This document shows positions 2,529-52,762 of a stretch of 64,000 nt of DNA, one piece after another; positions within the stretch are counted from its first letter, which is position 1, and the number at the start of each line of letters is the position of its first letter. The notes under the pieces were generated by a model, which saw only the letters and a program-made list of their open reading frames with translations, was not told the DNA's origin and did no database searches. This stretch comes from Candidatus Dormiibacterota bacterium. Its GTDB lineage: Bacteria > Chloroflexota > Dormibacteria > Aeolococcales > Aeolococcaceae. Where the stretch lies: the NCBI GenBank assembly GCA_049283735.1, contig JBAPWO010000146.1, forward strand, positions 1,473 to 65,472, written 5' to 3'. The position numbers were made by a program, and so were the translations under genes.

Positions 2529-3633
2529 GCATCAGCCCTCGCGCTCGAACAGGTTCGGTTACGGCCAGCGGCCGTGGCGGGCGCCCAACGAAGGCGTCGC
2601 CCAGCATCCGCCGAACGGCGCCCTCATCCGAGACGAGCGGGTCGTCGCCGCTGGCCTCCATGACGCGGCGAGCCGCCTCATCGAGCCCGTCCTCGGGCAT
2701 GCCCAGCGCGGAGAGCGACACCGGCAGCCGGAGTCGGTGAAGCTGCGCGAAAACGGCGACGGATGGATCGTCGGCCTCGAGCAACCGGCTGGCCTCGACG
2801 ATCGCTTCGGGCGCGCGCGCCGCCACGAGCGCGGTCGAATGGGGCAGCACCACAGCGTGGGTTTCAGCATGCGGCAGATTCCATCCGCCCCCGAGAACGT
2901 GGCACGTTCGGTGGTGGATTCCCGCACCAGCCTGCGCGAGCGCGACGCCGGCAAGACAGGCCCCGACCAGGTTGTCGGCGTGTGAGCCGAGATCGCTCGG
3001 GTCCTCCACCACGCGCGCGAGCCCGTGCGTCAGGCGGCGGCCACCCTCGCGTGCCAGAGCGCTCGTGATCGGATTGGCGCCCGCCGACCAGAGCGCTTCG
3101 AGGCAATGGGCGAGCGCGTTCATGCCGGAAGCGGCCGCCAGCCGGGGGGGCATCCCGACGCACAACTCCGGGTCGTACACGACCGTGCGAGGCAACACCT
3201 GCGCATCCGACCACGTCTGCTTGCGCCCGTCGCTGGTGCGACCCCAGATCGGGGTCATCTCGGATCCCGCGTAGGTGGTCGGCACTGCGATGAGCGGGAG
3301 ATCGCAGGCCTCTGCAACCGCCTTACCGAGCCCGGTCGCGGAGCCACCCCCCACAGTCACGACGATGTCGGCGCCGCCGCCGCGAGCCGCACGAATCGCG
3401 TCGTCAGCGATGGCGGACGGAACATGTTGCGCCGCGCTGCGCACCTCCCCAGCAAACCGAACACCAAGACCCTCACGCAGGCGATCGAGCGTGCGCGAGG
3501 TTGACGAGCCGCTGCCGATCACCAGCACCCGCTGCTTCTCGAGCCGGGCGACCTCGTCGGGGACGCGGCGCACAGCGCCGGCGGCGAAGACGACTCGCGA
3601 CGGAAGCGCCGTCCAGGTAAACGCGTAGGTCAT
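2521..3633 (-). CDS. maleylacetate reductase (iron-containing alcohol dehydrogenase fold)
   Basis: Fe-ADH motifs VTVGGGSATGLGK and His-rich HAETHAVVLPH; about 370 aa. Start chosen at MTYAFTW (ATG 3633), which overlaps the upstream stop as ATGA. The longer track ORF N-terminus is Arg-rich and implausible. Confidence 0.75.
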   Translation of the reverse strand: MTYAFTWTALPSRVVFAAGAVRRVPDEVARLEKQRVLVIGSGSSTSRTLDRLREGLGVRFAGEVRSAAQHVPSAIADDAIRAARGGGADIVVTVGGGSATGLGKAVAEACDLPLIAVPTTYAGSEMTPIWGRTSDGRKQTWSDAQVLPRTVVYDPELCVGMPPRLAAASGMNALAHCLEALWSAGANPITSALAREGGRRLTHGLARVVEDPSDLGSHADNLVGACLAGVALAQAGAGIHHRTCHVLGGGWNLPHAETHAVVLPHSTALVAARAPEAIVEASRLLEADDPSVAVFAQLHRLRLPVSLSALGMPEDGLDEAARRVMEASGDDPLVSDEGAVRRMLGDAFVGRPPRPLAVTEPVRARGLMHG

Positions 3634-5159
3634 TGCCCGAGGTCCGGGCGCGGATACCAGATCGGGAGCTGTGCATCGACATTGATCCACACTGACTTCG
3701 GCTGGGTGTACTCGTGCATCGCCTCGAATCCCATCTCGCGACCGTAGCCCGATCCCTGCACACCGCCGAAGGGCGAGGCGGGCGAGACGCGCTTGTAGGC
3801 GTTCACCCACACCATCCCCGAGCGCAGGAGCCGGGCCATCCGGTGCGCTCGCGCAAGGTCATTGGTCCAGAGCCCGCTCCCAAGCCCGTACTGCGTCGAG
3901 TTGGCGATCTGCAACGCCTCATCGGAGTCACGGAAGGTCGTGACCACGACGAAGGGACCGAACACCTCCTCCTGGCTGACGGTCGCGTCCGGACGGGCCC
4001 GGACCACTGTCGGTTGCACGTAGTAGCCGGCGGCGAGCTCGGGTGCGCTGGGAGCCTCGCCACCGCAGAGGATCTCCCCGCCTTCGGCACGCGCCACGTC
4101 GACATAGCCGAGCACCCGGTCGCGATGCAGCGCCGATGTCAGCGGCCCCATCTCGGTCGTCATGTCGAGCGGGTCTCCGATGCGAATGCCCGTGGCCACC
4201 TTCAGGAAAGCATCGAGAAAACGGTCGGCGATGCGTTCGTGCAGTAGCAACCTCGATCCGGCGATGCACGCCTGGCCCTGGTTGTGAAAGATCGCGAAGG
4301 CCGATCCGTTGACCGCCTCCTCGAGGTTCGCGTCCTCGAACACGATGTTCGCGCCCTTGCCACCGAGCTCGAGGTGGAGGCGTTTGAGAGTCGGCGCACT
4401 TGCCTCGACAAGCCGTCGCCCCACAGCCGTCGACCCGGTGAACGACAGCATGCGAATCCGTGGATGCGTCGCGATTGCCCAACCAGCCGAATTGCCATAC
4501 CCAGGCACGATGTTGACCACGCCTTCGGGGACGCCGGCCTCCTGCATCAACGCGGCGAGGCGGAGCGTGCTGAGTGGAGTGAGCTCGCTCGGCTTCATCA
4601 CCACAGCGTTGCCTGCGGCGAGCGCCGGCCCCAGCTTCCAGCTCGTGAACATCAGCGGGAAGTTCCACGGAACGATCTGGCCCACCACGCCAATGGGCTC
4701 GCGAAGCAGGTAGTTGAGGAATCCCGACTCGACCGGGACCACCGACCCTTCGTGCTTGTCGGCCATTCCCCCGAAATACCGATACCACGCCGCCGTCCGC
4801 GGAACATCGAGCCGGGTCGTGTCGCGAATCGGGTGTCCGGTGTCGACGGTCTCGAGCCTGGCCAGTTCGGCGAGGCTGTCCTCGACGAGATCGGCCAGCC
4901 GGAGCAGGATCCGGCCACGCTCGGCGGGAGCCGTAGCCGACCACGCGGGAAAGGCGCGCTCCGCCGCATCCACGGCGCGGTCGACGTCGGTCGCGCGCGC
5001 TTCGGCGATGCGCGTGATCGTCGAACCATCGTGCGGGTCGAGAACGTCGATCTCGCCCCCTTCCGTCGCATCGACCCATTGCCCGCCGATGAAGAGACGT
5101 GTCCGGAGGCCGGCCGGGTCGAGACGTGCTCGTGAAGGCAGTTGCTCGTCGAGCCCCAC
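3630..5159 (-). CDS. NAD(P)+ aldehyde dehydrogenase, probable 4-hydroxymuconic semialdehyde dehydrogenase
   Basis: ALDH motifs ELGGKGA, catalytic-Cys region GQACIAGSR and EEVFGPF; 509 aa. Its position between the dioxygenase and maleylacetate reductase genes suggests the pathway role. Confidence 0.8.
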   Translation of the reverse strand: MGLDEQLPSRARLDPAGLRTRLFIGGQWVDATEGGEIDVLDPHDGSTITRIAEARATDVDRAVDAAERAFPAWSATAPAERGRILLRLADLVEDSLAELARLETVDTGHPIRDTTRLDVPRTAAWYRYFGGMADKHEGSVVPVESGFLNYLLREPIGVVGQIVPWNFPLMFTSWKLGPALAAGNAVVMKPSELTPLSTLRLAALMQEAGVPEGVVNIVPGYGNSAGWAIATHPRIRMLSFTGSTAVGRRLVEASAPTLKRLHLELGGKGANIVFEDANLEEAVNGSAFAIFHNQGQACIAGSRLLLHERIADRFLDAFLKVATGIRIGDPLDMTTEMGPLTSALHRDRVLGYVDVARAEGGEILCGGEAPSAPELAAGYYVQPTVVRARPDATVSQEEVFGPFVVVTTFRDSDEALQIANSTQYGLGSGLWTNDLARAHRMARLLRSGMVWVNAYKRVSPASPFGGVQGSGYGREMGFEAMHEYTQPKSVWINVDAQLPIWYPRPDLGQ

Positions 5160-5170
5160 GGAGGCCCCGA

Positions 5171-6154
5171 TCAGAAGTCCACAGGGTGGCTGGGCAGCTT
5201 GCCGGTCGCGTACAGCTCCGGAAGCGCTGCGTCGGCGTTCTCCCAGACGAGCAGCATCGCCCGCTTCGGCGAATAGCCCTGGTGCCGGATGTTCGCCGGC
5301 ATCGACGCCACGTCGCCTGGTTTCATGACGACCCGGCTTCGGGCTGCTCCGGTGTCACGATCCTCGACCGCCCAGATGATCTCGTCGCTGAGCTGGAGGA
5401 ACCACTCCACCCTGTCGTTGCCATGGATGATCGGAAGGATGTACTCCTCGGTGGTGGGGCAATACAGGCTGTCCTTGCAGACGCTCACCACCGATGGGTT
5501 CCAGGTGACGTCGGATCGGGAGAGGTACGCGAAAAGGTTGTACGCCTTCACGTCCGACTCGAAACCGGGCTCGGCTTCGACCTCCGGGCTGTCCTGCGGC
5601 ACGTCGGCGAACATGCGGTTGATGGGATGGGTGGCGTCGGTGCGCAGCTGCTCGTCGTCGTCGCACGAGACCATGCGCTTGGAAGCGACCCGCCGCCGGG
5701 TCACGGCTGCGATGTTACTGCCGTTCTTGTCACCAAAGGCGCTGCCCGTCTCCTCGGGCGAGGCGAATGGATCGAACGAAGCGTTGGTCCAGTCGGCGAG
5801 CATCCGCTCGAAGGTTGCCTTGATGTTCTCGCTCGGAAAATTCTCGACGTGATCCATCTCCGCCTTGCGGTAGGCGTCATTGTAGCGGCCGGCGAAGAGG
5901 TCGACGGTGCCGTAGTGGTTGACGGTGCCGACCACGCCGTCAAAATTGACGATGCCGTAGAAGAAGTTCCAGGCGACGTCCCGCTGCATCGCTCGGAGGA
6001 AGGCGTCCACGGACATCACGTGGCTGCCCGTGGGCCATTTGACGTACACGAAGTACTCATCACGCCGGAAGTGAAACTCGCCCAGGGTGAACTCGGCATA
6101 CCCATGCGCGTTCGGCTCGCTCGCGATGACGTCGGTGTCCATGAGCAGCGTCAT
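5171..6154 (-). CDS. hydroquinone 1,2-dioxygenase large subunit (PnpD/HapD-like cupin)
   Basis: 327 aa with a C-terminal cupin. Ligand pattern is H244-x-N246-x3-E250 plus H291 (+47), the spacing I recall for the PnpD Fe(II) ligands. SD GGGAG lies 10 nt upstream of the ATG. Confidence 0.65.
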   Translation of the reverse strand: MTLLMDTDVIASEPNAHGYAEFTLGEFHFRRDEYFVYVKWPTGSHVMSVDAFLRAMQRDVAWNFFYGIVNFDGVVGTVNHYGTVDLFAGRYNDAYRKAEMDHVENFPSENIKATFERMLADWTNASFDPFASPEETGSAFGDKNGSNIAAVTRRRVASKRMVSCDDDEQLRTDATHPINRMFADVPQDSPEVEAEPGFESDVKAYNLFAYLSRSDVTWNPSVVSVCKDSLYCPTTEEYILPIIHGNDRVEWFLQLSDEIIWAVEDRDTGAARSRVVMKPGDVASMPANIRHQGYSPKRAMLLVWENADAALPELYATGKLPSHPVDF

Positions 6155-6188
6155 TTGCTTGTGACTCCCATCACTGCGTCGACCAGCC

Positions 6189-6689
6189 TCAGTGAGTCTG
6201 GCAGATCTCTCCCCATCGATACACGGTGTCTGCGCCTTCGATGGTCTGCAGCAGAACGACCGAGGGCTTGTCAGCGCGGAACCGATACGCCGCGTGCACG
6301 GGCAGCAGGGTCATGTGCCCGCGGCGGGCGACGACGCGCCCCATGCGTGGCCCGGTGGGCTCATGACCGAGGCGCACCGAGCCCTGCGTTCCGTCGGGCG
6401 GTTCCTCGTCCGGCGACAGCCGATGGAGGGTGACCTCCACCTCTCCATCCATGACCAGTGCGAACTCGTCGTGCGCCGTGCCGCGCCACTCCGACTCACC
6501 TTCCGCGCGGATGGCTTCGAGCACGTACTGGCGATTCTTGCCAACCGCGACCTTCTCGTACGGCCGCGAGTGCGCAGCGACGTCGAACACGTTCGAGAAG
6601 GTGTAACGCCTGGGATCATCGTCGATGATCTCGACGCCCCCTTTCTCGTACTGCTCCAACGCGCCGAAACGAGTGACATACGTGGGCAC
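6189..6689 (-). CDS. hydroquinone 1,2-dioxygenase small subunit (PnpC/HapC-like)
   Basis: 166 aa, immediately upstream of the large subunit; size and position match two-subunit hydroquinone dioxygenases. GTG start preceded by AGGCGAGGATAAGG. Confidence 0.55.
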   Translation of the reverse strand: MPTYVTRFGALEQYEKGGVEIIDDDPRRYTFSNVFDVAAHSRPYEKVAVGKNRQYVLEAIRAEGESEWRGTAHDEFALVMDGEVEVTLHRLSPDEEPPDGTQGSVRLGHEPTGPRMGRVVARRGHMTLLPVHAAYRFRADKPSVVLLQTIEGADTVYRWGEICQTH

Positions 6690-7606: not shown

Positions 7607-9055
7607 ATGCGTGGGTCGGACGTCGTCGGCGGCGTCGTGTTGAGGATCACCTCAGCGCTCCGCCACGCGGGGGTTCCTGTCTCAACGGGGGAGGCTATCG
7701 ATGCGGCGCGTGCGCTCGAGATCATGAACGCCGGACATCGAGGCGAGGTCCGCGCCGCGCTCCGGGCGACGCTGATCAAACGACAGGACGATGTCGACAC
7801 CTTTGAACGGATCTTCGACGCCCTCATGGCCACTGTCGTCAACGACGCCGCGACGGAGGTGATGCTCCCGGCCGGACCCGCGAGCACAACCAGTTCGGTG
7901 TCGCCCACGATCGGGGAGACGGCGTCGACATCGCTCCTCGAGGAGCTCGCGGCGGCTTTGCGGGACGACGACACCGACGCGCTGCGCGCGCTCGCACCCA
8001 GGGCGGTTGACCAGCTCGCGGGGTTCGGATCGGGATCTCAGGATTCCGAGCGCGCGCTCCTGTACCGCGTGCTTCGCGGGCTCGACCTTGCCCGGATCCT
8101 GCAACGCGCCCTCCGCGAGGGCGCCGCTGTCACCGACGATTCAGCGATCGCAGCCGCGCTCGGCCCAGCGGAAATCGCGGCTCGGGTCGACGAGTTTCGC
8201 CGCCTGCTCGCGCAGGAAGTGCGCCGTCGCCTCGACCGGCGGTCCCTCCGGGACGGCCGCGGCATCCCGAGATCCTCGGCAAATCTCGAGGACGTGCCGA
8301 TCCTGGGCGCGAGCCCGTCCGACATTGCGGCGTTGCAACGAGCCCTGCGGCCGCTGGCTCGGAAGCTCGCAGTACGAGGGGCTCGCCGGCGGCGCTTCAC
8401 GCGGCGCGGGCGGCTGGATGTTCGGCGCACCATCCGCCGCTCGCTGTCCACCGGCGGAGTTCCCGTCCAGCCGCTGTGGCGCCGGCCGCGGACGACGCGG
8501 CCCGAGCTTGTCGTCCTCTGTGACGTGAGCGGCTCGGTGGCGGAGTTCGCGCGATTCACCCTGGCGCTCATGAGCGCCATGAGCGCCGAGTTTTCGGCCC
8601 TGCGTTGCTTCGCCTTCGTCGACGGCGTGGACGAGGTGACCCAAATCGTCGCGGATGCGCAGGGAGCGCTGATGCCGGGGCACGTGCTCGCTCGAACCGA
8701 CGTCGTGTGGGATGACGGTCACAGTGACTACGGTCGCGTGTGGAGCGTCTTCGCCACCCGCTTCTCGTCGGCGCTGACCCCGAGGTCCAGCCTGGTGATC
8801 ACCGGCGACGCCAGGAGCAACTACCGTGCGGCGAACGCTGCCGGGCTGGCCGCGATGGCGAGAGCCGTCCGGGAAGTGCACTGGCTCAACCCCGAACGCC
8901 GTGAACACTGGGACACCGGCGACTCGGTGATGGCCCTGTACGCGCGCAGCTGCGATTCCGTGCACGAGGTGCGAACCCTCCGCCAGCTCGAATCGGCCGC
9001 GCTCGATGTCGCGACCGGTACCTGGGCGTCGTCCGTACACTCGCAGCGTGCCTGA
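7607..9055 (+). CDS. vWA domain protein, CoxE-like (MoxR partner)
   Basis: The N-terminal [20 protein letters not shown] helix region and the C-terminal vWA with MIDAS-like CDVSGSV are typical of the VWA_CoxE family. Confidence 0.8.
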
Positions 9056-11084
9056 GCCCGACGGCGAACTGCTCATTCTTCGAAATCGTCTCGGCGACCT
9101 CGACCAGCGGATCGTTGAGCTGATCGCGGAGCGATTCCGGGTCGTCGCCCACGTCGCCACCGAGAAGGCCTCATCCGACGCCGCGATCCGAGACTCCGAC
9201 CGCGAACGCCAGGTGCTCGCGGCCGTCGAGCACATCGCACGGACCGAGGGCGCGCCCGTCAACCTGGTCCGCCGGATCTACCGCGAACTCCTCGCCGAAT
9301 CGGTGAGCAGGCAGGTCGCAAGTCGCTCAGGGGCGCACCGCGAGGTGGCACTTCGCGTCGCCGTGCGCGGCGACCAGTCGTTTGGCTTCCTCGCAGCGCA
9401 GAAGTACCTGTCGGCGCGAGACGTCGACGGCGACCTCGTCGTGACCCATACCTACCAGGCGGCGGTCGACGCTTTGAACGCAGGGGACGTGGACCTCGCG
9501 GTTCTGCCGATCGAAAACACCGCGGCCGGAAGTGTCGACGAGACCTACGATCTGCTTCGCGAGAACGAGGTGTCGATCGTCGGCGAGGAGACGTCGAGCG
9601 TCGATTACTGCCTGTGCGGTGTCAGTGACATTCCGCTCGGAGCGATCAGCCAGGTCGTGGCCGCGGTCGACGGTCTCGAGCAGTGCTCACGATTCCTCGA
9701 GACGCTCCCCAACGCGTCCCAGCTCGTGCATGTCGAGACCGGTGCCGCGATGCGGCTGGTGCGCGCCGGGGGCGATGCCACCCACGTTGCGATCGGCGCG
9801 CCCGAGGCAGCCGCCGCGCATGGGTTGGTGGTGCTTCGACACGGCATCGCCAACCACGCCGAGAACTACACACGTTTCGTCGTCCTCGCGCTGCATCCTG
9901 TCGCGGTCGAACTCACTGCACCGTGCAAGACCAGCCTGATCCTGGTCACCCGGCACGAGCACGGCGCCCTGATGCGGTCGCTCGGCGTCCTTGCGGCGAG
10001 CGGGCACTCGATGACGAAGCTCGAATCGCGTCCACGCCCCGGCCGGCCGTTCGAGTACATGTTCTTCATCGATTTCGAGGGCAACATCGCGGATCCGCGG
10101 ACCGCCGATGCGCTCGACGACCTTCGGTCCACCGCGCTGCACCTCAAGGTGCTCGGCAGCTATCCGGCGACGACCACCACCGGTGACGTTCAACCGGGAG
10201 ATGCGACGCCGCTGGTTCCCCTACCCGCCGACGCTGTCGCGTCGGAAACGGTTGCGCCACCTCGTCCGACGGCCAAGGCGTCGAAGAATTACCGTCTCGC
10301 GGGGCGGGGCGCTCGCTCCGACGACACCGTGATCCCGGTCGGCAACCTGCTGATCGGCGGCGGCGGTTTCCTCGTGATGGCGGGACCCTGCTCGGTTGAG
10401 TCCGCCGACCAGATCAATGCCACCGCGCGTGCGGTCCGCGAGGCCGGCGCGCAGATCCTTCGCGGGGGAGTGTTCAAGCCCCGAACCTCGCCATACGCGT
10501 TCCAGGGGCTCGGCTGGGAAGGCCTCGAACTGCTCGCCGCGGCCGGCAGGGCCACGGGGATGCCGATCATCAGCGAGGTCATGGCTGTCGACCAGGTCAG
10601 GCGTATGGCCGAGCTGGTCGACGTCCTCCAGGTCGGAACCCGGAACATGCAGAACTTCGACCTCTTGCGCGAACTCGGCAAGGTCGATCGCCCGATCCTG
10701 CTCAAGCGCGGTCTCTCGAGCACGATCGACGAGTGGCTGGGCGCGGCCGAGTACATCCTCGCGATCGGGAATCAGCAGGTCATGCTCTGCGAGCGGGGCA
10801 TCCGAACCTTCGAGACGAGCACGCGCAACACCCTCGACCTGTGCGCGATACCCGTGCTGCGCGAGCTGACCCACCTTCCCGTCATCGTCGATCCGAGCCA
10901 CGGCACAGGCCACCGCGCCTACGTCGCCCCGATGGCCAAGGCGGCGCGTGCGGCGGGCGCACATGGCCTCCTCATCGAGGTGCACCCGGATCCCGACAAG
11001 GCACGTTCAGACGCCGAGCAGAGTCTGTCCTTCCCGGAATTCCTCTCGCTGATGCGGGGCCTGCAGACTGTCGCTCCCGGCTAA
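9006..11084 (+). CDS. trifunctional fusion: chorismate mutase + prephenate dehydratase + ACT + DAHP synthase (type I-beta)
   Basis: One uninterrupted ORF. CM helix region [20 protein letters not shown] (about 9063-9305). PDT with ENYTRF (about 9351-9896). ACT with KLESRPRPG (about 9924-10160). DAHPS I-beta with [23 protein letters not shown] and DPSHG (about 10281-11081). Alternative GTG start at 9048. Confidence 0.85.
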
Positions 11085-12442
11085 CGCTGACGGGGTCGCT
11101 CGACCCACAGAAAGCTTGTGAAGTTCTCGTCGAGGTCCTGCAGGTCGTCCTCGACAACGCGCAGGCCGTTCAGGTCGGCAAGGATCCTGCTGCCCATGGT
11201 GGCGATGGAGTCGGCAAGCTCCCCCGTGCCGAGAAGCTCGGCCACCTTGGCCTGATCGATGAGGTCGCCACTGCCGCTCGTCTGCCTGAGATTGGCGTAT
11301 TTCTTCTCGAGGTTGGTGCGGCACTGACTGAGCACCTGGGGGTGCGTCATGACCGTGTCGACCTTCGAGAAATCGGCGCCACCGGCGATCATCAGCGCGT
11401 GCGAGATCTTGATCGCAAACTCTTCGACGATCGCAAAGCGATAGCGGGCCATCGCCGCCACCGATTCGGCGACCATTCCGCCGACGGAGTTGTGAATGGC
11501 GAAGATTCCGCGATCGACCTCGCCCTCGTGCAGCGCGCGCAGCACCCGTTCGGTGGTGTGGAGATAGACGATCTCGCACGGCACCTCGGGCGTCCGGTTC
11601 ATGTAATACCGCGCCGCGTCCTCGTTGAAGCTGCCTCGCCCGCCCTGGATGCCGACGACCATGCGGTCGGTGACGACACGATTCGGGAGCAACAGGTCGA
11701 AGACCGAGTCCTGGGCCTCCGAGAGGCGGAGGCGCATCCCCTTGGTGTGAGGGTTGAGGGTTTGCAGATCGACGAAGAGCTGCCAGGTGTCGTTGATGAC
11801 CTGGGAGGTGACCTCATGAAGCCGTCTGGTGCCGAGGGTATCGATCGGTGTCGGAGCAAAACCGAATCGTTCGAGCGTTCGACCGACGAAGTGCGTGACG
11901 CCCTGACTCTCGGCCGCGAGTCGATCGTGTTCGTCGGCTGTCATCGGCACGACCACGAGTCCTTTGGACTCGAAGTAGCGGCTCCATGCGTCGAGCGCCG
12001 CCGGCGGCAAGCGATACCCGTCAAGGACGATCGCCTGACCCTCGATGCCGCTCGCGGCAACACTGTCCGGGCCGAACAGCGGGTGGGTCAGCAGCGCCTG
12101 ATAGGTGGCGGGCAGATGACGGTCGAACACCTCGCGCGCGTGCACCTTCACCGAGAGGACGTCGATGAGCGTGCGCGCGCCGCCAAGCTCGTGAAAATGC
12201 GGCAGGTGCTCTTTGATCGTGGCCTCAAATGCGGAGATGGGCACGCAGTAGAAGACGGCATCCGACGCCAGCGTGTCACGCAGGCTCGCGGTTGATACCC
12301 CGTGCCGCTCCGCGTCGGCGCGCTGCGTTGCATCCGCATCGTATGCGCGCAGCGCGAAGTCGTCCTGCAGCATCGAGGCCCAGAGGCGTCCAAACCGGCC
12401 GAGGCCAACGACGCCGACCGTCGCCGGCAGGGCACTGTTCAT
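11081..12442 (-). CDS. fusion: prephenate/arogenate dehydrogenase (TyrA) + ACT-less prephenate dehydratase domain
   Basis: N-terminal Rossmann [19 protein letters not shown] and GVTHF (TyrA). C-terminal PDT domain with IHNSVGG and THPQVLSQC, but NFTSF in place of TRF, and no ACT domain. Start at MNSALP (ATG 12442). Confidence 0.8.
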
Positions 12443-12561
12443 CACCGGGGCTAGTCTACGGATGCGCAGGCACTGGTTCGCCGCATCGGTCCGCTGCCCC
12501 CCGACGGCGTGGCGCAACGCCCAATGCACCGAAGGCCGGGGCGTGGGTATGGTCTGCGTGC

Positions 12562-15225
12562 ATGGCGACCCCGGCTGAGCTCGAGACAACCGACCGAACC
12601 GTGCGCGACACCGCGCGGCACCAGATGCCACGTGCCCTTCGCGAGGAGGTCCGCCTGGTTGCCGACGCGCTCGGGCAGGTGATCGCCGAGCATGGCGGTG
12701 CGGAGCTTCTCGCCGATGTCGAGACCTTGCGGAGGACGGTCATCAGCGCGCGGGCCGAGGACGATGTGCGGGGTGGCTACGCATACACGGCGGACACGCT
12801 CGTCTCATCGTGGTCGCTCGATCGCGCCGAGCAGGTGGCGCAGGCGTTCACGTGCTATTTCCACCTCGTCAACCTGGCGGAAGAGCGGTATCGCGCTCGG
12901 ACGCTCCGAGAGGCGGACTTCGATGCGACCGGGACGCCGGAAGGGCTCATGGCCGCCCTCGAAGCGGTGCGCACGGAGCTCGGCGACGAGGGCCTCGACG
13001 GACTGCTTGCGAACCTTCGCGTGCACCCGGTGTTCACCGCGCATCCCACCGAAGCGCGTCGACGCGCGGTGACCTCGGTCCTTCGACGGGTCGGCGAGCA
13101 GCTCGACCGGCTGGCAGATCCGAGGGTATCGGAGGCGCCGCAGGCGGAGACCCGACGGCGATTGCTGGAGGAGGTCGACGGTCTCTGGCGCACCGCCCAG
13201 CTGCGCAGCCAGGAGCTGCAACCGCTCGATGAGGTCCGGACCCTCATGGGCGTCTTCGACGAGACTCTCTTCCGCTTGGTCCCGGCGGTCTATCGGGAGC
13301 TCAGCGCCGGGCTCGACGCGACCGACACGGGCGTGCAGCTCCCGGCCGCGCCCGCGTTTCTGCGATTTGGAAGCTGGGTGGGCGGTGACCGCGACGGAAA
13401 CCCGCAGATCACCGCCCAGGTGACCCGCGAGACGTTGCTCATCCAGTCCGAGCACATCCTGCGCGGGCTGGAGGCGGCCGCCACCCGCATCGGCACCGGA
13501 CTGACCGCCGATTCCGCGACCACGCCTCCCGACGGGCGCTTCCTCCGCCGCCTCGGCGCGGCGCTCGAGATCGGGGGCGGACGAGCCTCGGCCATCGAGG
13601 AGCGGTCCCCTCGCGAGCCGTACCGGCAGTTCCTCCTGCTTGTCGCGGAGCGCATCGCGGCGACCCGCCGGGCGGACCTGTCGCTCGCGTACGCGGGACC
13701 CGACGAGCTGCTCGATGACCTCCGCGGGGTGCAGGACGCACTCGTGGCCGCTGGGGCGCCGCGGCAGGCGTACGGAGAGCTGCACGACCTCGTCTGGCAG
13801 GTGCAAACCTTTGGATTTCACCTCGCCGACCTTGAAATCCGCCAGCACAGCACTGTCCATCGCAACGCGCTCGCCGAGATCGCCGCAGGCGGCGCGCGTT
13901 CACCCGAGACCGACGAAGTTGTGGCGACGATGCGAACCATCGCCCTTCTGCAGCAACGGTTTGGCGCTCATGTGTGCCATCGCTACGTGGTCAGCTTCAC
14001 AACCAGCGCCGATGACGTCGCCACAGTCCACACGCTCGCCGAGCGGGCCTGTGCGCCCAACCCCGCTCCGGCGCTCGATGTGGTGCCGCTGTTCGAAACC
14101 ACTGTCGATCTGAGCAATGCGCGCGCGACCCTGGACGCGATGCTCGACCTCGAGCCGGTGCGCCGGCGCATGGCCGCGACCGGGCGCGCGCTCGAGGTCA
14201 TGCTCGGGTACTCCGATTCAGCGAAGGAGAGCGGGCCCGTCACCGCAACCCTCGCCCTGTACGCTGCCCAGGCCGACCTCGCCGCGTGGGCCGCCGAGCG
14301 CTCGGTCGCGCTCACGCTCTTCCACGGTCGGGGCGGGGCGTTGGGTCGAGGCGGCGGCCCCGCGAACCGCGCCGTGATGGCACAGGCGCCGGGATCGGTG
14401 TCGGGGCGTTTCAAGGTCACCGAGCAAGGGGAGGTCATCTTCGCCAGATACGGCAATCGAACGCTGGCGCAGCGGCATCTCGAGCAGGTGACCTCGGCGG
14501 TGCTGCTCACGTCCACCGCGGCAGCCCGCCGGCGCACCGGGCAGGCGGCGATCCGGTTCGAGGCGCTCGGCCGGACCATCGACTCGGCCGCGCGCACGGC
14601 ATATCGCGACCTGATCGAGGTCGAAGGGTTCGCCGCGTACTTCGCCGAGGTGACCCCGGTCCGCGAGCTGGCTCGTCTGCACCTCGGGTCTCGCCCGTCA
14701 AACCGCGGCGGCGACAGCAGCCTGTCGTCGCTCCGGGCCATCCCCTGGGTCTTCGCGTGGTCCCAGATCCGGCTGAATCTCCCCGGGTGGTATGGCCTGG
14801 GCAGCGGCCTGGCCTCCGCGGGTCTGGATGAGCTGCGTATCGCGTATGAGGGATGGCCGCTGCTCAGAGTCCTCATCGACAACGCGGAGATGAGCCTCGC
14901 CAAGACCGATCGATTCATGGCCGCCGAGTACCTGCGCCTCGGAGGCGAGCCGCAAATCGCGGATCTGATCCTGGCGGAATACGACCGCACGATCGATGGG
15001 ATCCAGGCGGTCACCGGCCAATCCCGCCTGCTCGAGAAACGCCGGGTGCTGTCCTGGGCGGTCGAGTTGCGCAATCCCTACATCGATGCGCTCTGCCATC
15101 TCCAGCTTCGCGCGCTTCGGGCACTGCGCAGTGGCGACGCTGCGGATGCCGACCGCAGGCGGTTGGAGCAGCTCCTGCTGTTGACGGTGAACGGCATCGC
15201 AGCCGGATTGCAGAACACCGGATAA
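12562..15225 (+). CDS. ppc: phosphoenolpyruvate carboxylase
   Basis: Motifs VFTAHPTE and GYSDSAKESG plus C-terminal QNTG. Start at MATPAELE (ATG 12562); the upstream part of the track ORF is Arg/Pro-rich junk. Confidence 0.9.
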   Translation: MATPAELETTDRTVRDTARHQMPRALREEVRLVADALGQVIAEHGGAELLADVETLRRTVISARAEDDVRGGYAYTADTLVSSWSLDRAEQVAQAFTCYFHLVNLAEERYRARTLREADFDATGTPEGLMAALEAVRTELGDEGLDGLLANLRVHPVFTAHPTEARRRAVTSVLRRVGEQLDRLADPRVSEAPQAETRRRLLEEVDGLWRTAQLRSQELQPLDEVRTLMGVFDETLFRLVPAVYRELSAGLDATDTGVQLPAAPAFLRFGSWVGGDRDGNPQITAQVTRETLLIQSEHILRGLEAAATRIGTGLTADSATTPPDGRFLRRLGAALEIGGGRASAIEERSPREPYRQFLLLVAERIAATRRADLSLAYAGPDELLDDLRGVQDALVAAGAPRQAYGELHDLVWQVQTFGFHLADLEIRQHSTVHRNALAEIAAGGARSPETDEVVATMRTIALLQQRFGAHVCHRYVVSFTTSADDVATVHTLAERACAPNPAPALDVVPLFETTVDLSNARATLDAMLDLEPVRRRMAATGRALEVMLGYSDSAKESGPVTATLALYAAQADLAAWAAERSVALTLFHGRGGALGRGGGPANRAVMAQAPGSVSGRFKVTEQGEVIFARYGNRTLAQRHLEQVTSAVLLTSTAAARRRTGQAAIRFEALGRTIDSAARTAYRDLIEVEGFAAYFAEVTPVRELARLHLGSRPSNRGGDSSLSSLRAIPWVFAWSQIRLNLPGWYGLGSGLASAGLDELRIAYEGWPLLRVLIDNAEMSLAKTDRFMAAEYLRLGGEPQIADLILAEYDRTIDGIQAVTGQSRLLEKRRVLSWAVELRNPYIDALCHLQLRALRALRSGDAADADRRRLEQLLLLTVNGIAAGLQNTG

Positions 15226-48646: not shown

Positions 48647-48653
48647 CGGTCTG

Positions 48654-48725
48654 AGCCCAAGGTGAGGATTGAACTCACGGCCTACGCCTTACCAAGGCGT
48701 TGCTCTACCACTGAGCTACTTGGGC
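48654..48725 (-). tRNA. tRNA-Thr (anticodon GGU)
   Basis: Hand-folded cloverleaf. Acceptor GCCCAAG/CTTGGGC, D arm GCTC-AGTGGTA-GAGC, anticodon arm ACGCC-TTGGTAA-GGCGT, T arm GTGAG-TTCAATC-CTCAC; 72 nt. CCA is not encoded. Confidence 0.9.
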
Positions 48726-52653: not shown

Positions 52654-52690
52654 TCACGAGGGTGGCGTTGCAGCCGCGGCATGAACTCGG

Positions 52691-52762
52691 AGCCGATGGG
52701 GAGATTCGAACTCCCGACCAACCGCTTACAAGGCGGTTGCTCTACCCCTGAGCTACATCGGC
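52691..52762 (-). tRNA. tRNA-Thr (anticodon UGU)
   Basis: Hand-folded cloverleaf. Acceptor GCCGATG/CATCGGC, D arm GCTC-AGGGGTA-GAGC, anticodon arm ACCGC-CTTGTAA-GCGGT, T arm GGGAG-TTCGAAT-CTCCC; 72 nt. Confidence 0.9.

Follow-up and report, generated by a model that had tools for sequence, protein, structure and literature searches.

A single gene of an uncultured soil bacterium of the Dormibacterota encodes an entire P-protein, composed of chorismate mutase (CM), prephenate dehydratase (PDT), and ACT domains, followed by a linker and a type I-beta DAHP synthase (DAHPS) with intact catalytic residues. The sequence-only reading of the window (the whole 64,000-nucleotide stretch of DNA that was analyzed) had proposed this domain order, and it was recovered by Pfam, NCBIfam, alignments, an AlphaFold model, and Foldseek. 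Judging from the conserved residues and from analogy to characterized enzymes, we consider it fairly likely that the fusion is a trifunctional DAHPS/CM/PDT enzyme, which senses phenylalanine (Phe) and is dedicated to the Phe branch, and that its P-protein part also gates the DAHPS. One chain would then hold the pathway entry (DAHPS), the branch point between Phe and tyrosine (Tyr) (CM), and the committed step toward Phe (PDT).

The gene is a single open reading frame (ORF) of 692 codons (positions 9006 to 11084, plus strand), and an ORF check confirmed that it is free of stops from ATG 9006 to the TAA at 11082 to 11084. Residue numbers are counted from this ATG (1 to 692). While the extent of the ORF stands as first read, the ATG is less likely to be the true start than GTG 9048, where translation probably begins, giving 678 amino acids (aa). 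The GTG is favored because the corresponding stretch before it is interrupted by an in-frame stop in relatives at the loci L002, L003, and L015, and because most homologues are 678 aa long. There is an 8-nt overlap between this start and the stop of the CoxE-like gene upstream. The choice of start has no effect on the domain content.

One trivial explanation is that the fusion is spurious, the linker having been misassembled or missequenced. However, all of the 120 best hits, which come from JGI, ENA, NCBI, and Logan assemblies, have the same architecture, and more than 100 independent clusters of proteins share the reading frame, as do many assemblies of metagenome-derived genomes (MAGs) from Dormibacterota, Actinomycetota, Acidimicrobiia, and Acidobacteriota. 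With tblastn, the entire protein aligned as one continuous segment to independent MAGs from Danish soils, from Stordalen palsa, and from SMAG. Since the frame is constant across independent assemblies and the linker changes its length only in frame, such an error was excluded, albeit indirectly. Furthermore, dN/dS values revealed purifying selection on every domain. As judged from these comparisons, the gene is real, is shared by several phyla, and is a housekeeping gene of a Dormibacterota bacterium.

The N-terminal half was analyzed domain by domain. The CM domain (9057 to 9326, plus strand; residues 18 to 107) is an AroQ-type three-helix unit, with helices at residues 18 to 55, 64 to 81, and 85 to 107 in the AlphaFold model and a Pfam CM_2 match over residues 25 to 103 (E = 1.5e-16). 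Its alignment to the E. coli domain EcCM (1ECM) is free of gaps and shows that none of the seven active-site residues has been lost: R26, R43, K54, D63, E67, S99, and Q103 correspond to EcCM R11, R28, K39, D48, E52, S84, and Q88, respectively. The P-protein-type CM profile scored higher than the AroA-type profile (TIGR01797, 41.8 bits; TIGR01801, 24.9 bits). The PDT catalytic domain (9345 to 9899, plus strand; residues 114 to 298) matched Pfam PDT over residues 124 to 296 (E = 2.3e-38) and can be aligned to the Chlorobium PDT 2QMX. Of 133 relatives (at least 42% identity), 131 have the same TRF motif (residues 289 to 291) and two have TRY. Foldseek gave TM scores of 0.85 to 0.88 against PDT and Phe-bound PDT-ACT structures. 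Conservation of the CM and PDT residues would also be expected if these sites served only to sense ligands, a role that has been argued for the CM domain of Bacillus-type enzymes.

The ACT regulatory domain (9918 to 10172, plus strand; residues 305 to 389) was not matched by the Pfam ACT model at E ≤ 0.01. Evidence for it comes from PDT-ACT crystal structures, to which the protein aligns up to residue 388, from the Foldseek matches to Phe-bound PDT-ACT structures, and from the beta-alpha-beta-beta-alpha-beta fold at residues 307 to 387 of the AlphaFold model. The ESRP motif (residues 340 to 343) occurs in all 133 relatives and GAL (residues 320 to 322) in 123, the others being one residue off; here the motif reads GALM, versus the GALV expected for a P-protein. 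When dN/dS was computed against relatives of 89 to 91% identity, ACT had the lowest values of all segments (0.00 to 0.03), and CM and PDT had values of about 0.09 to 0.13.

Taken as a unit, residues 20 to 389 are collinear with positions 5 to 378 of the 386-position P-protein model PRK10622 (NF007910), although the score of 239.4 bits is below the equivalog cutoff of 577; the protein is divergent yet collinear. It has the CM-PDT-ACT order, the EcCM residues, and the TRF, GAL, and ESRP motifs of a P-protein, but it does not end after ACT. Likewise, its N-terminal 390 residues are collinear with E. coli-type PheA and have the CM residues, TRF, GAL, and ESRP in common with it, and the difference lies in about 300 additional C-terminal residues, which comprise the linker and an active-looking I-beta DAHPS.

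The Pro/Thr/Ala-rich linker, put at roughly 40 aa in the sequence-only reading, spans residues 390 to 427 (10173 to 10286, plus strand; about 38 aa). It is predicted to be disordered (pLDDT below 50) and is the least conserved segment of the protein, with the highest dN/dS of all segments (0.15 to 0.32 among close relatives of 89 to 97% identity). In relatives it comprises 30 to 47 residues, without exception in frame. Because of the disordered linker and a pTM of 0.58 for the AlphaFold monomer, the modeled placement of the domains relative to each other is uninformative.

The C-terminal part (10287 to 11069, plus strand; residues 428 to 688) corresponds to a type I-beta DAHPS barrel with its N-terminal beta-hairpin. 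Pfam DAHP_synth_1 (PF00793) matched residues 447 to 682 (E = 5.2e-77; 258.8 bits versus a cutoff of 25.5), and over residues 423 to 689 the NCBIfam I-beta models PRK08673 (421 bits versus 335) and TIGR01361 (377 versus 267.75) were exceeded. With phmmer, the best alignments to I-beta DAHPS chains of known structure had E values of 1e-81 to 1e-93. Foldseek revealed 46 to 57% identity to solved structures over the barrel, with TM scores of 0.88 to 0.91 for the DAHPS structures from P. furiosus, A. pernix, and T. maritima, the last of these in truncated form. In the AlphaFold model, strands and helices alternate over residues 442 to 686, as in a (beta/alpha)8 barrel. The metal ligands C462, H632, E658, and D669 and the motifs KPRT, RNxQN, KR, ERGxR, and DPSH are all present, and nine of nine catalytic positions are intact. 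All motifs quoted in the sequence-only reading were found, in the P-protein half (ENYTRF, LESRP) as well as in the barrel (GPCSVES, KPRTSPY, GTRNMQN, DPSHG). Among 133 relatives of 42 to 97% identity, ligands and motifs are constant except for KPRS variants and three single-sequence exceptions. At all checked positions, in both halves, 109 of these relatives are identical to the protein studied here, and the others have a difference at one position or an N-terminal truncation.

The barrel thus looks like a catalytically active DAHPS, as predicted from its residues. The idea that it is a dead relic, as in Shewanella, is in line with the loss of catalytic residues in most distant family members, but it was rejected in view of the nine intact positions, a dN/dS of 0.008 to 0.03, and 59 to 63% identity to Paenibacillus DAHPS. 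We give next to no credence to the fusion being an artefact or carrying a noncatalytic domain, and the sequence comparisons effectively refute this explanation.

The sequence-only reading implied that the architecture is rare and novel. This did not hold: among representatives of clusters formed at 50% identity, at least 50 have it, and existing pipelines annotate relatives as "CM/PDT" or "bifunctional DAHPS/CM." The latter name is assigned by NCBI because the protein exceeds the cutoff of the Bacillus-type DAHPS/CM model PRK12595 (NF009239; 371 bits versus 279, in two stretches). Moreover, Song, Bonner, and Jensen (2005; PMC1173090) described in Shewanella oneidensis an aroQ-pheA gene fused to an "aroA-Ibeta pseudogene" in the same domain order. 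The architecture is therefore already noticed and widespread in metagenomes. As supposed, no biochemical or structural characterization of a CM-PDT-ACT-DAHPS enzyme was found in full-text literature searches, whose coverage leaves out subscription-only papers and theses, and structure searches, including Foldseek, found no solved structure that spans both the P-protein and DAHPS modules.

Of 47 distant representatives, about 35 (approximately three quarters) have decayed DAHPS catalytic residues; MAG labels among the distant representatives include Acidobacteriota and Myxococcota. The decayed proteins have the identical order of CM, PDT, ACT, and an I-beta-like DAHPS and align over their full length to the protein studied here at 31 to 40% identity, and they belong to the same family. 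They retain only 0 to 5 of the nine DAHPS catalytic positions kept here, having lost the Cys, KPRT, His, and Asp, whereas the P-protein residues are precisely those retained. The C-terminal domain is still barrel-sized (about 250 aa) and recognizable by Pfam, which argues that it serves the P-protein beyond catalysis. Conversely, since residues decay where they are not needed, their retention in the clade of the protein studied here indicates that they are in use. At the one locus with a decayed DAHPS that was examined (L084), a separate I-alpha DAHPS gene and a CM-PDH gene lie alongside. The decayed clade was tied to Shewanella through the 2005 paper and through the gammaproteobacterial-style pheA/tyrA-aroF neighborhood of one representative (P0176), not through a Shewanella sequence.

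Further PDT/DAHPS fusions lack the CM, lack the ACT domain, or have the reverse order FXD-DAHPS-PDT-ACT; PF18152 (DAHP_snth_FXD) is present in the reverse-order proteins P0142 and P0147. In a rough neighbor-joining tree of DAHPS domains, the intact fusions group with CM-DAHPS proteins. The tree, in which decayed domains are on long branches, gives a hint that the reverse-order fusions may be of separate origin.

How the fusion might be regulated was considered by comparison with known systems. The CM-linked AroA(Q) enzymes of Bacillus, Geobacillus, and Listeria (PDB 5J6F, 3NVT) contain the same DAHPS subtype with a CM N-terminal to the barrel, and their prephenate-driven domain closure, described for Geobacillus and Bacillus, is a proposed analogue. 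They differ in that the CM is joined directly to the barrel in a protein of about 360 aa; in the fusion, about 320 residues (PDT, ACT, and linker) lie in between. In Thermotoga maritima DAH7PS (PDB 1RZM, 3PG9), an ACT-fold domain is immediately N-terminal to the barrel, as in the fusion, and Foldseek matched the ACT, linker, and barrel of the fusion topologically to 1RZM over 378 aligned columns; because the superposition rmsd is about 13 A, the placement of the domains is not comparable. By analogy, a Thermotoga-like regulation by aromatic amino acids would be expected at the ACT-type domain. However, the ACT domain of the fusion is of the PDT-associated type, Pfam did not detect DAHP_snth_FXD (PF18152) in the protein, and the linker appears much longer than that of Thermotoga, whose length was not measured here. 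Physical coupling of the first enzyme with the branch-point enzyme is also known from the DAH7PS-CM of Prevotella and Porphyromonas and from the CM-DAHPS of M. tuberculosis, both with documented reciprocal allostery. The former have a C-terminal CM and thus another domain order, the latter has a type II DAHPS in a noncovalent complex with CM, and both are without PDT-ACT.

Based on these parallels, all three activities would be expressed, and Phe would bind to ACT and inhibit PDT and, in part, CM, as in PheA. In the assembled enzyme, a tetramer of DAHPS barrels may form the core, surrounded by dimers of CM and of PDT-ACT. Binding of Phe at ACT, of prephenate or chorismate at the CM site, or of both, would lower the DAHPS activity by domain closure, on the model of the I-beta enzymes from Thermotoga (ACT-like) and from Geobacillus/Bacillus (CM). 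In this way, the P-protein module could gate the barrel, and it is plausible that both known I-beta allosteric devices, the CM and the ACT-like domain, operate in one chain. The enzyme would then amount to a DAHPS "isozyme" that is dedicated and covalently attached to the Phe branch, reproducing at the protein level the logic of the aroF-tyrA operon. If it were the only DAHPS of the organism, strong inhibition by Phe would starve Tyr and Trp synthesis.

A farther-reaching version, which we regard as tentative and lean against, is that Phe at the ACT dimer together with prephenate or chorismate at the CM dimer closes P-protein "lids" over the DAHPS tetramer, while occupancy of the DAHPS tunes CM and PDT. 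Entry step, branch point, and Phe branch would form one allosteric machine, and the dead barrels would be organizing or regulating pseudoenzyme domains. Such a lid-closing scaffold would explain why many lineages carry a catalytically dead DAHPS barrel on a P-protein.

The linker bears on these proposals. It is far longer than the 11 residues reported for P. gingivalis DAH7PS-CM, so tight mechanical gating is not assured. A long, disordered, poorly conserved linker of variable length is in line with three active enzymes that are merely tethered for coexpression, fixed stoichiometry, or coassembly, with Phe acting on PDT and CM only and the DAHPS being unregulated or regulated otherwise. Because DAHPS and CM catalyze nonconsecutive steps, channeling is not expected, and the same argument was published for PniDAH7PS; the reverse-order, CM-less, and ACT-less fusions also suggest loose combinatorial joining. 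Coexpression alone, however, does not explain why relatives with a decayed DAHPS retain the entire domain, the ACT domain is constrained as strongly as the barrel, and according to the literature, an added N- or C-terminal module is allosteric in every characterized I-beta DAHPS. We consider independent modules unlikely, yet deserving of attention, and continue to favor the gated trifunctional enzyme.

The genomic context was also analyzed. Convergent with the fusion gene, and overlapping its 3' end, lies a gene at 11081 to 12442 (minus strand) encoding a 453-aa fusion of a TyrA dehydrogenase, with PDH_N and a plant-type arogenate dehydrogenase C-domain, to a PDT-like domain without ACT. This neighbor belongs to a family in which at least 120 clusters share its architecture and 120 of 121 have TSF, and its pairing with the fusion gene is conserved at the Dormibacterota loci L001 to L004, L009, and L015. 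Apart from this gene, no other aromatic-pathway genes were found within the 64-kb window, where the neighbors encode a CoxE-like VWA protein, PEP carboxylase, dehydrogenases, and a hydroquinone-dioxygenase-like pair. Rfam detected no RNA leader or riboswitch in the window and matched two tRNA-Thr genes only. In Actinomycetota, relatives are flanked by dxs and aconitase genes, a housekeeping context. This and the neighbors in the window ruled out dedicated precursor supply for a biosynthetic gene cluster.

The second PDT-family domain, adjoining and syntenic throughout Dormibacterota, could carry the bulk of the dehydratase flux if the P-protein half were mainly a sensor, an allosteric appendage of the DAHPS, with CM and dehydratase flux passing through other enzymes. 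In line with this, the fused CM of Geobacillus and Bacillus is, according to the literature, essentially regulatory and of low activity, catalysis being performed by a separate AroH CM, and the intact fusions group with CM-DAHPS proteins in the rough tree. However, in the neighbor's domain the catalytic TRF is replaced by TSF and the identity is no more than 27%, while the N-terminal 390 residues of the fusion are collinear with a complete P-protein, with all catalytic residues conserved. Retention of these residues in the decayed relatives furthermore suggests that elsewhere the P-protein module is the indispensable catalytic part. A mainly sensory P-protein half is therefore, in our estimate, quite improbable, and a trifunctional enzyme remains the preferred reading.

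DAHPS is a textbook case of allostery through modules added to a catalytic barrel. To our knowledge, only small appendages have been studied so far, namely ACT-like domains and N- or C-terminal CMs. In the fusion, a complete bifunctional enzyme with its own regulation takes their place. It thereby offers a natural experiment on whether modular allostery can be extended to larger modules and on whether simple fusion suffices to connect feedback by one end product, Phe, to the pathway entry. The intact trifunctional, CM-less, ACT-less, reversed, and decayed-barrel proteins form a graded natural series, which could reveal the transition from a catalytic domain to a regulatory pseudoenzyme domain. 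Furthermore, because pipelines name only one or two of the three activities, pathway reconstruction is distorted for uncultured soil lineages, Dormibacterota and Acidimicrobiia among them.

The gene at 9006..11084 on the forward strand is a single 692-codon open reading frame with a GC3 of 0.83, typical for genes of this 67% G+C window. The sequence-only reading had claimed that it joins chorismate mutase (CM), prephenate dehydratase (PDT), ACT, a linker and a type I-beta DAHP synthase (DAHPS) in one chain. This was borne out, because all motifs it quoted are present, and the domains were matched. Numbering residues from ATG 9006, Pfam placed CM_2 at residues 25-103, PDT at 124-296 and DAHP_synth_1 at 447-682, with E-values of 1e-16 to 5e-77. 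Residues 20-389 are collinear with the NCBIfam model of the E. coli-type P-protein (CM-PDT-ACT), and residues 423-689 match NCBIfam type I-beta DAHPS models with scores above the curated cut-offs. Pfam's ACT model did not match the protein; the ACT domain is supported by alignment with Phe-bound PDT-ACT crystal structures up to residue 388, by a beta-alpha-beta-beta-alpha-beta fold at residues 307-387 of the AlphaFold model and by Foldseek matches to Phe-bound PDT-ACT structures (TM 0.85-0.88). The linker (residues 390-427) is rich in Pro, Thr and Ala, with pLDDT below 50.

The true start of the gene is probably GTG 9048 and not ATG 9006, because an in-frame stop interrupts the region matching codons 1-14 in the close relatives L002, L003 and L015 (loci in other genomes), and most homologues are 678 aa long. 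The annotated ATG implies a 50-nt overlap with the upstream CoxE-like VWA gene (window 9006-9055). GTG 9048 overlaps the stop codon of that gene by 8 nt (GTGCCTGA), an arrangement that points to the two genes being translationally coupled.

An artificial fusion created during assembly is contradicted by the frame, which is repeated across independent assemblies. CM_2, PDT and DAHP_synth_1 were found in one chain in all 120 best protein clusters (60-98% identity), drawn from JGI, ENA, NCBI and Logan assemblies. Furthermore, tblastn gave one unbroken alignment across the entire protein in MAGs of different projects, the nearest being a Candidatus Dormibacteraeota MAG at 97% identity. The same domain order is found in full-length relatives from MAGs that carry the labels Actinomycetota, Streptosporangiaceae, Acidimicrobiia and Acidobacteriota. 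Among relatives the linker varies between 30 and 47 residues, and the frame is always kept.

Aligned with E. coli EcCM, the CM domain shows no gaps and keeps seven of seven active-site residues (EcCM R11, R28, K39, D48, E52, S84 and Q88 correspond to R26, R43, K54, D63, E67, S99 and Q103). The PDT domain retains the TRF motif, and the ACT domain retains GAL(M) and ESRP, which line the Phe site of PDT-ACT structures. For the DAHPS barrel, alignments with structurally solved I-beta enzymes gave E-values of 1e-81 to 1e-93, and Foldseek gave 46-57% identity; all four metal ligands (C462, H632, E658, D669) and the KPRT, RNxQN, KR, ERGxR and DPSH motifs are kept. At all checked CM, PDT, ACT and DAHPS positions, 109 of 133 relatives (42-97% identity) match the window protein; the others differ at one position each or are truncated N-terminally. 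Pairwise dN/dS (Nei-Gojobori), calculated against relatives at 89-91% identity, with dS near saturation in the more distant pairs, was 0.008-0.03 for DAHPS, 0.00-0.03 for ACT, about 0.09-0.13 for CM and PDT, and 0.15-0.24 for the linker. Purifying selection acts on all four domains, and ACT is constrained as strongly as the barrel. We conclude that the gene is real, conserved and selected, with catalytic and effector-binding sites intact in all modules.

All the sequence and fold criteria that were tested identify the protein as a type I-beta DAHPS; its N-terminal part is a complete but divergent P-protein. It scores above the NCBIfam threshold set for the Bacillus-type "bifunctional DAHPS/CM" (PRK12595), which explains its database name, but it does not have the Bacillus-type architecture, since PDT-ACT intervenes between CM and the barrel. 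It also lacks the ferredoxin-like FXD domain of the Thermotoga type. No solved structure spanning more than one of its modules was found.

To place the protein in its wider family, 1.84 billion cluster representatives (50% identity) were scanned exhaustively with HMMER, followed by local domain mapping. Among the best 150 representatives, 50 were CM-PDT-ACT-DAHPS, 14 were PDT-ACT-DAHPS (some being fragments), seven had the reverse order DAHPS-PDT-ACT with an N-terminal Thermotoga-type ferredoxin-like domain, and a few were CM-PDT-DAHPS without ACT. The catalytic columns of the P-protein are conserved in nearly all family members, whereas the DAHPS Cys, KPRT, His and Asp are kept only in the window protein and in 10 of 46 representatives examined. 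About three-quarters of the distant CM-PDT-ACT-DAHPS relatives (representatives P0123-P0270) have lost the metal ligands and KPRT; they retain a barrel-sized, Pfam-recognised domain scoring 30-118 bits, versus about 259 bits in intact members. At the sole locus examined (L084, 6001-7983), the decayed member P0176 has both a CM-PDH and a separate I-alpha DAHPS encoded nearby, in a pheA / tyrA(CM+PDH) - aroF(I-alpha DAHPS) neighborhood typical of gamma-proteobacteria.

The decayed DAHPS has the appearance of a pseudoenzyme domain that P-proteins have kept, the "aroA-Ibeta pseudogene" described as fused to aroQ-pheA in Shewanella oneidensis (Song, Bonner and Jensen 2005, PMC1173090). The decayed members match this sole literature mention found, so the architecture had already been seen, but in decayed form; Shewanella-type proteins share the domain order of the window protein and differ in the decayed barrel. 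In this survey, the intact form, including the window protein, was found only in uncultured lineages. The sequence-only interpretation is supported in part: a real and uncharacterized architecture stands, as we found no paper characterizing a CM-PDT-ACT-DAHPS enzyme in the searchable literature; the rarity and novelty that it implied do not, given at least 50 representatives and PMC1173090. The fusion is common in metagenomes yet unstudied.

A rough neighbor-joining tree of DAHPS domains suggests that those of intact fusions cluster with proteins carrying CM N-terminal to DAHPS and that the decayed ones form long branches adjoining them, with intermediates keeping four or five of nine residues. 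The reverse-order fusions appear to be placed elsewhere, suggesting an independent fusion event. Other DAHPS/PDT fusions (P0142; P0147, locus L085 1835-3703; P0134; P0161) comprise reverse FXD-DAHPS-PDT-ACT, PDT-ACT-DAHPS without CM, and CM-PDT-DAHPS without ACT, the last from a Myxococcota MAG. The first enzyme of the pathway and the Phe branch seem to have been fused repeatedly and independently.

Convergent with the fusion gene, and overlapping its 3' end, is a reverse-strand gene (11081..12442) for a 453-aa TyrA-PDT-like protein consisting of PDH_N, a plant-type arogenate dehydrogenase C-domain and a PDT-family domain without ACT. The pairing is kept in Dormibacterota loci at 69-95% identity and absent from Actinomycetota relatives. 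This neighbor belongs to a conserved family in its own right, in which 120 of 121 members have TSF instead of the catalytic TRF of PDT; a bifunctional enzyme acting on arogenate is one possibility for it, a sensor domain another. To our knowledge, no TyrA-PDT(TSF) fusion has been characterized. Directly beyond it is a forward-strand PEP carboxylase gene (12229-15225, likely start near 12560), whose position is conserved among Dormibacterota loci (L001-L003, L009, L015). The proximity of this PEP-consuming enzyme to the PEP-consuming DAHPS may reflect coincidence or shared regulation.

Upstream of the fusion gene are the CoxE-like VWA gene and a hydroquinone 1,2-dioxygenase-like pair. On the reverse strand, an aldehyde dehydrogenase (3630-5159), the PnpD-like large subunit (5171-6154) and the small ORF of the pair (6189-6689) make up an aromatic ring-cleavage module (3630-6689) near the aromatic biosynthesis genes. 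The small-subunit gene matches in two frames in the 97%-identical MAG (L001/L081), which suggests that one of the two sequences carries a frameshift or an assembly error. The remaining genes of the 64-kb window serve unrelated housekeeping, transport and envelope functions, and none of them was recognized as belonging to the aromatic pathway; Rfam detected no RNA element in the whole window except two reverse-strand tRNA-Thr genes 4 kb apart (anticodons GGT and TGT; 48653-48725 and 52689-52762). In Actinomycetota relatives, the fusion gene lies between dxs and aconitase, a primary-metabolism context by which a biosynthetic gene cluster was rejected.

AroQ CMs are dimers, PDT-ACT proteins are dimers or tetramers binding Phe at the ACT interface, and I-beta DAHPS enzymes are tetramers. 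Given these oligomeric states, the simplest assembly would have two P-protein dimers flanking a central DAHPS tetramer. In Thermotoga and Geobacillus DAHPS, regulatory-domain dimers in the equivalent position close over the active sites upon Tyr or prephenate binding. On this precedent, the protein is proposed to be a trifunctional enzyme: Phe, via ACT, would down-regulate PDT and CM and, through domain closure, also DAHPS; prephenate or chorismate, via the CM site, would perhaps act likewise on all three. That the three activities are real is probable. Regulation of DAHPS by the P-protein module is a more tentative proposition, somewhat short of an even chance. Real coupling is favored by the retention of the barrel in relatives no longer needing DAHPS catalysis and by the very strong constraint that ACT shares with the barrel. 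Tight coupling is disfavored by the long, disordered linker (that of the P. gingivalis enzyme, DAH7PS-CM, has 11 residues) and because a DAHPS strongly inhibited by Phe would leave Tyr and Trp synthesis starved if it were the only one. In summary, the fusion is a case of gene fusion, and putatively of modular allostery, where the shikimate pathway begins that merits the attention of DAHPS allostery specialists, and the intact versus decayed barrels and the neighboring TyrA-PDT(TSF) fusion add evolutionary interest.
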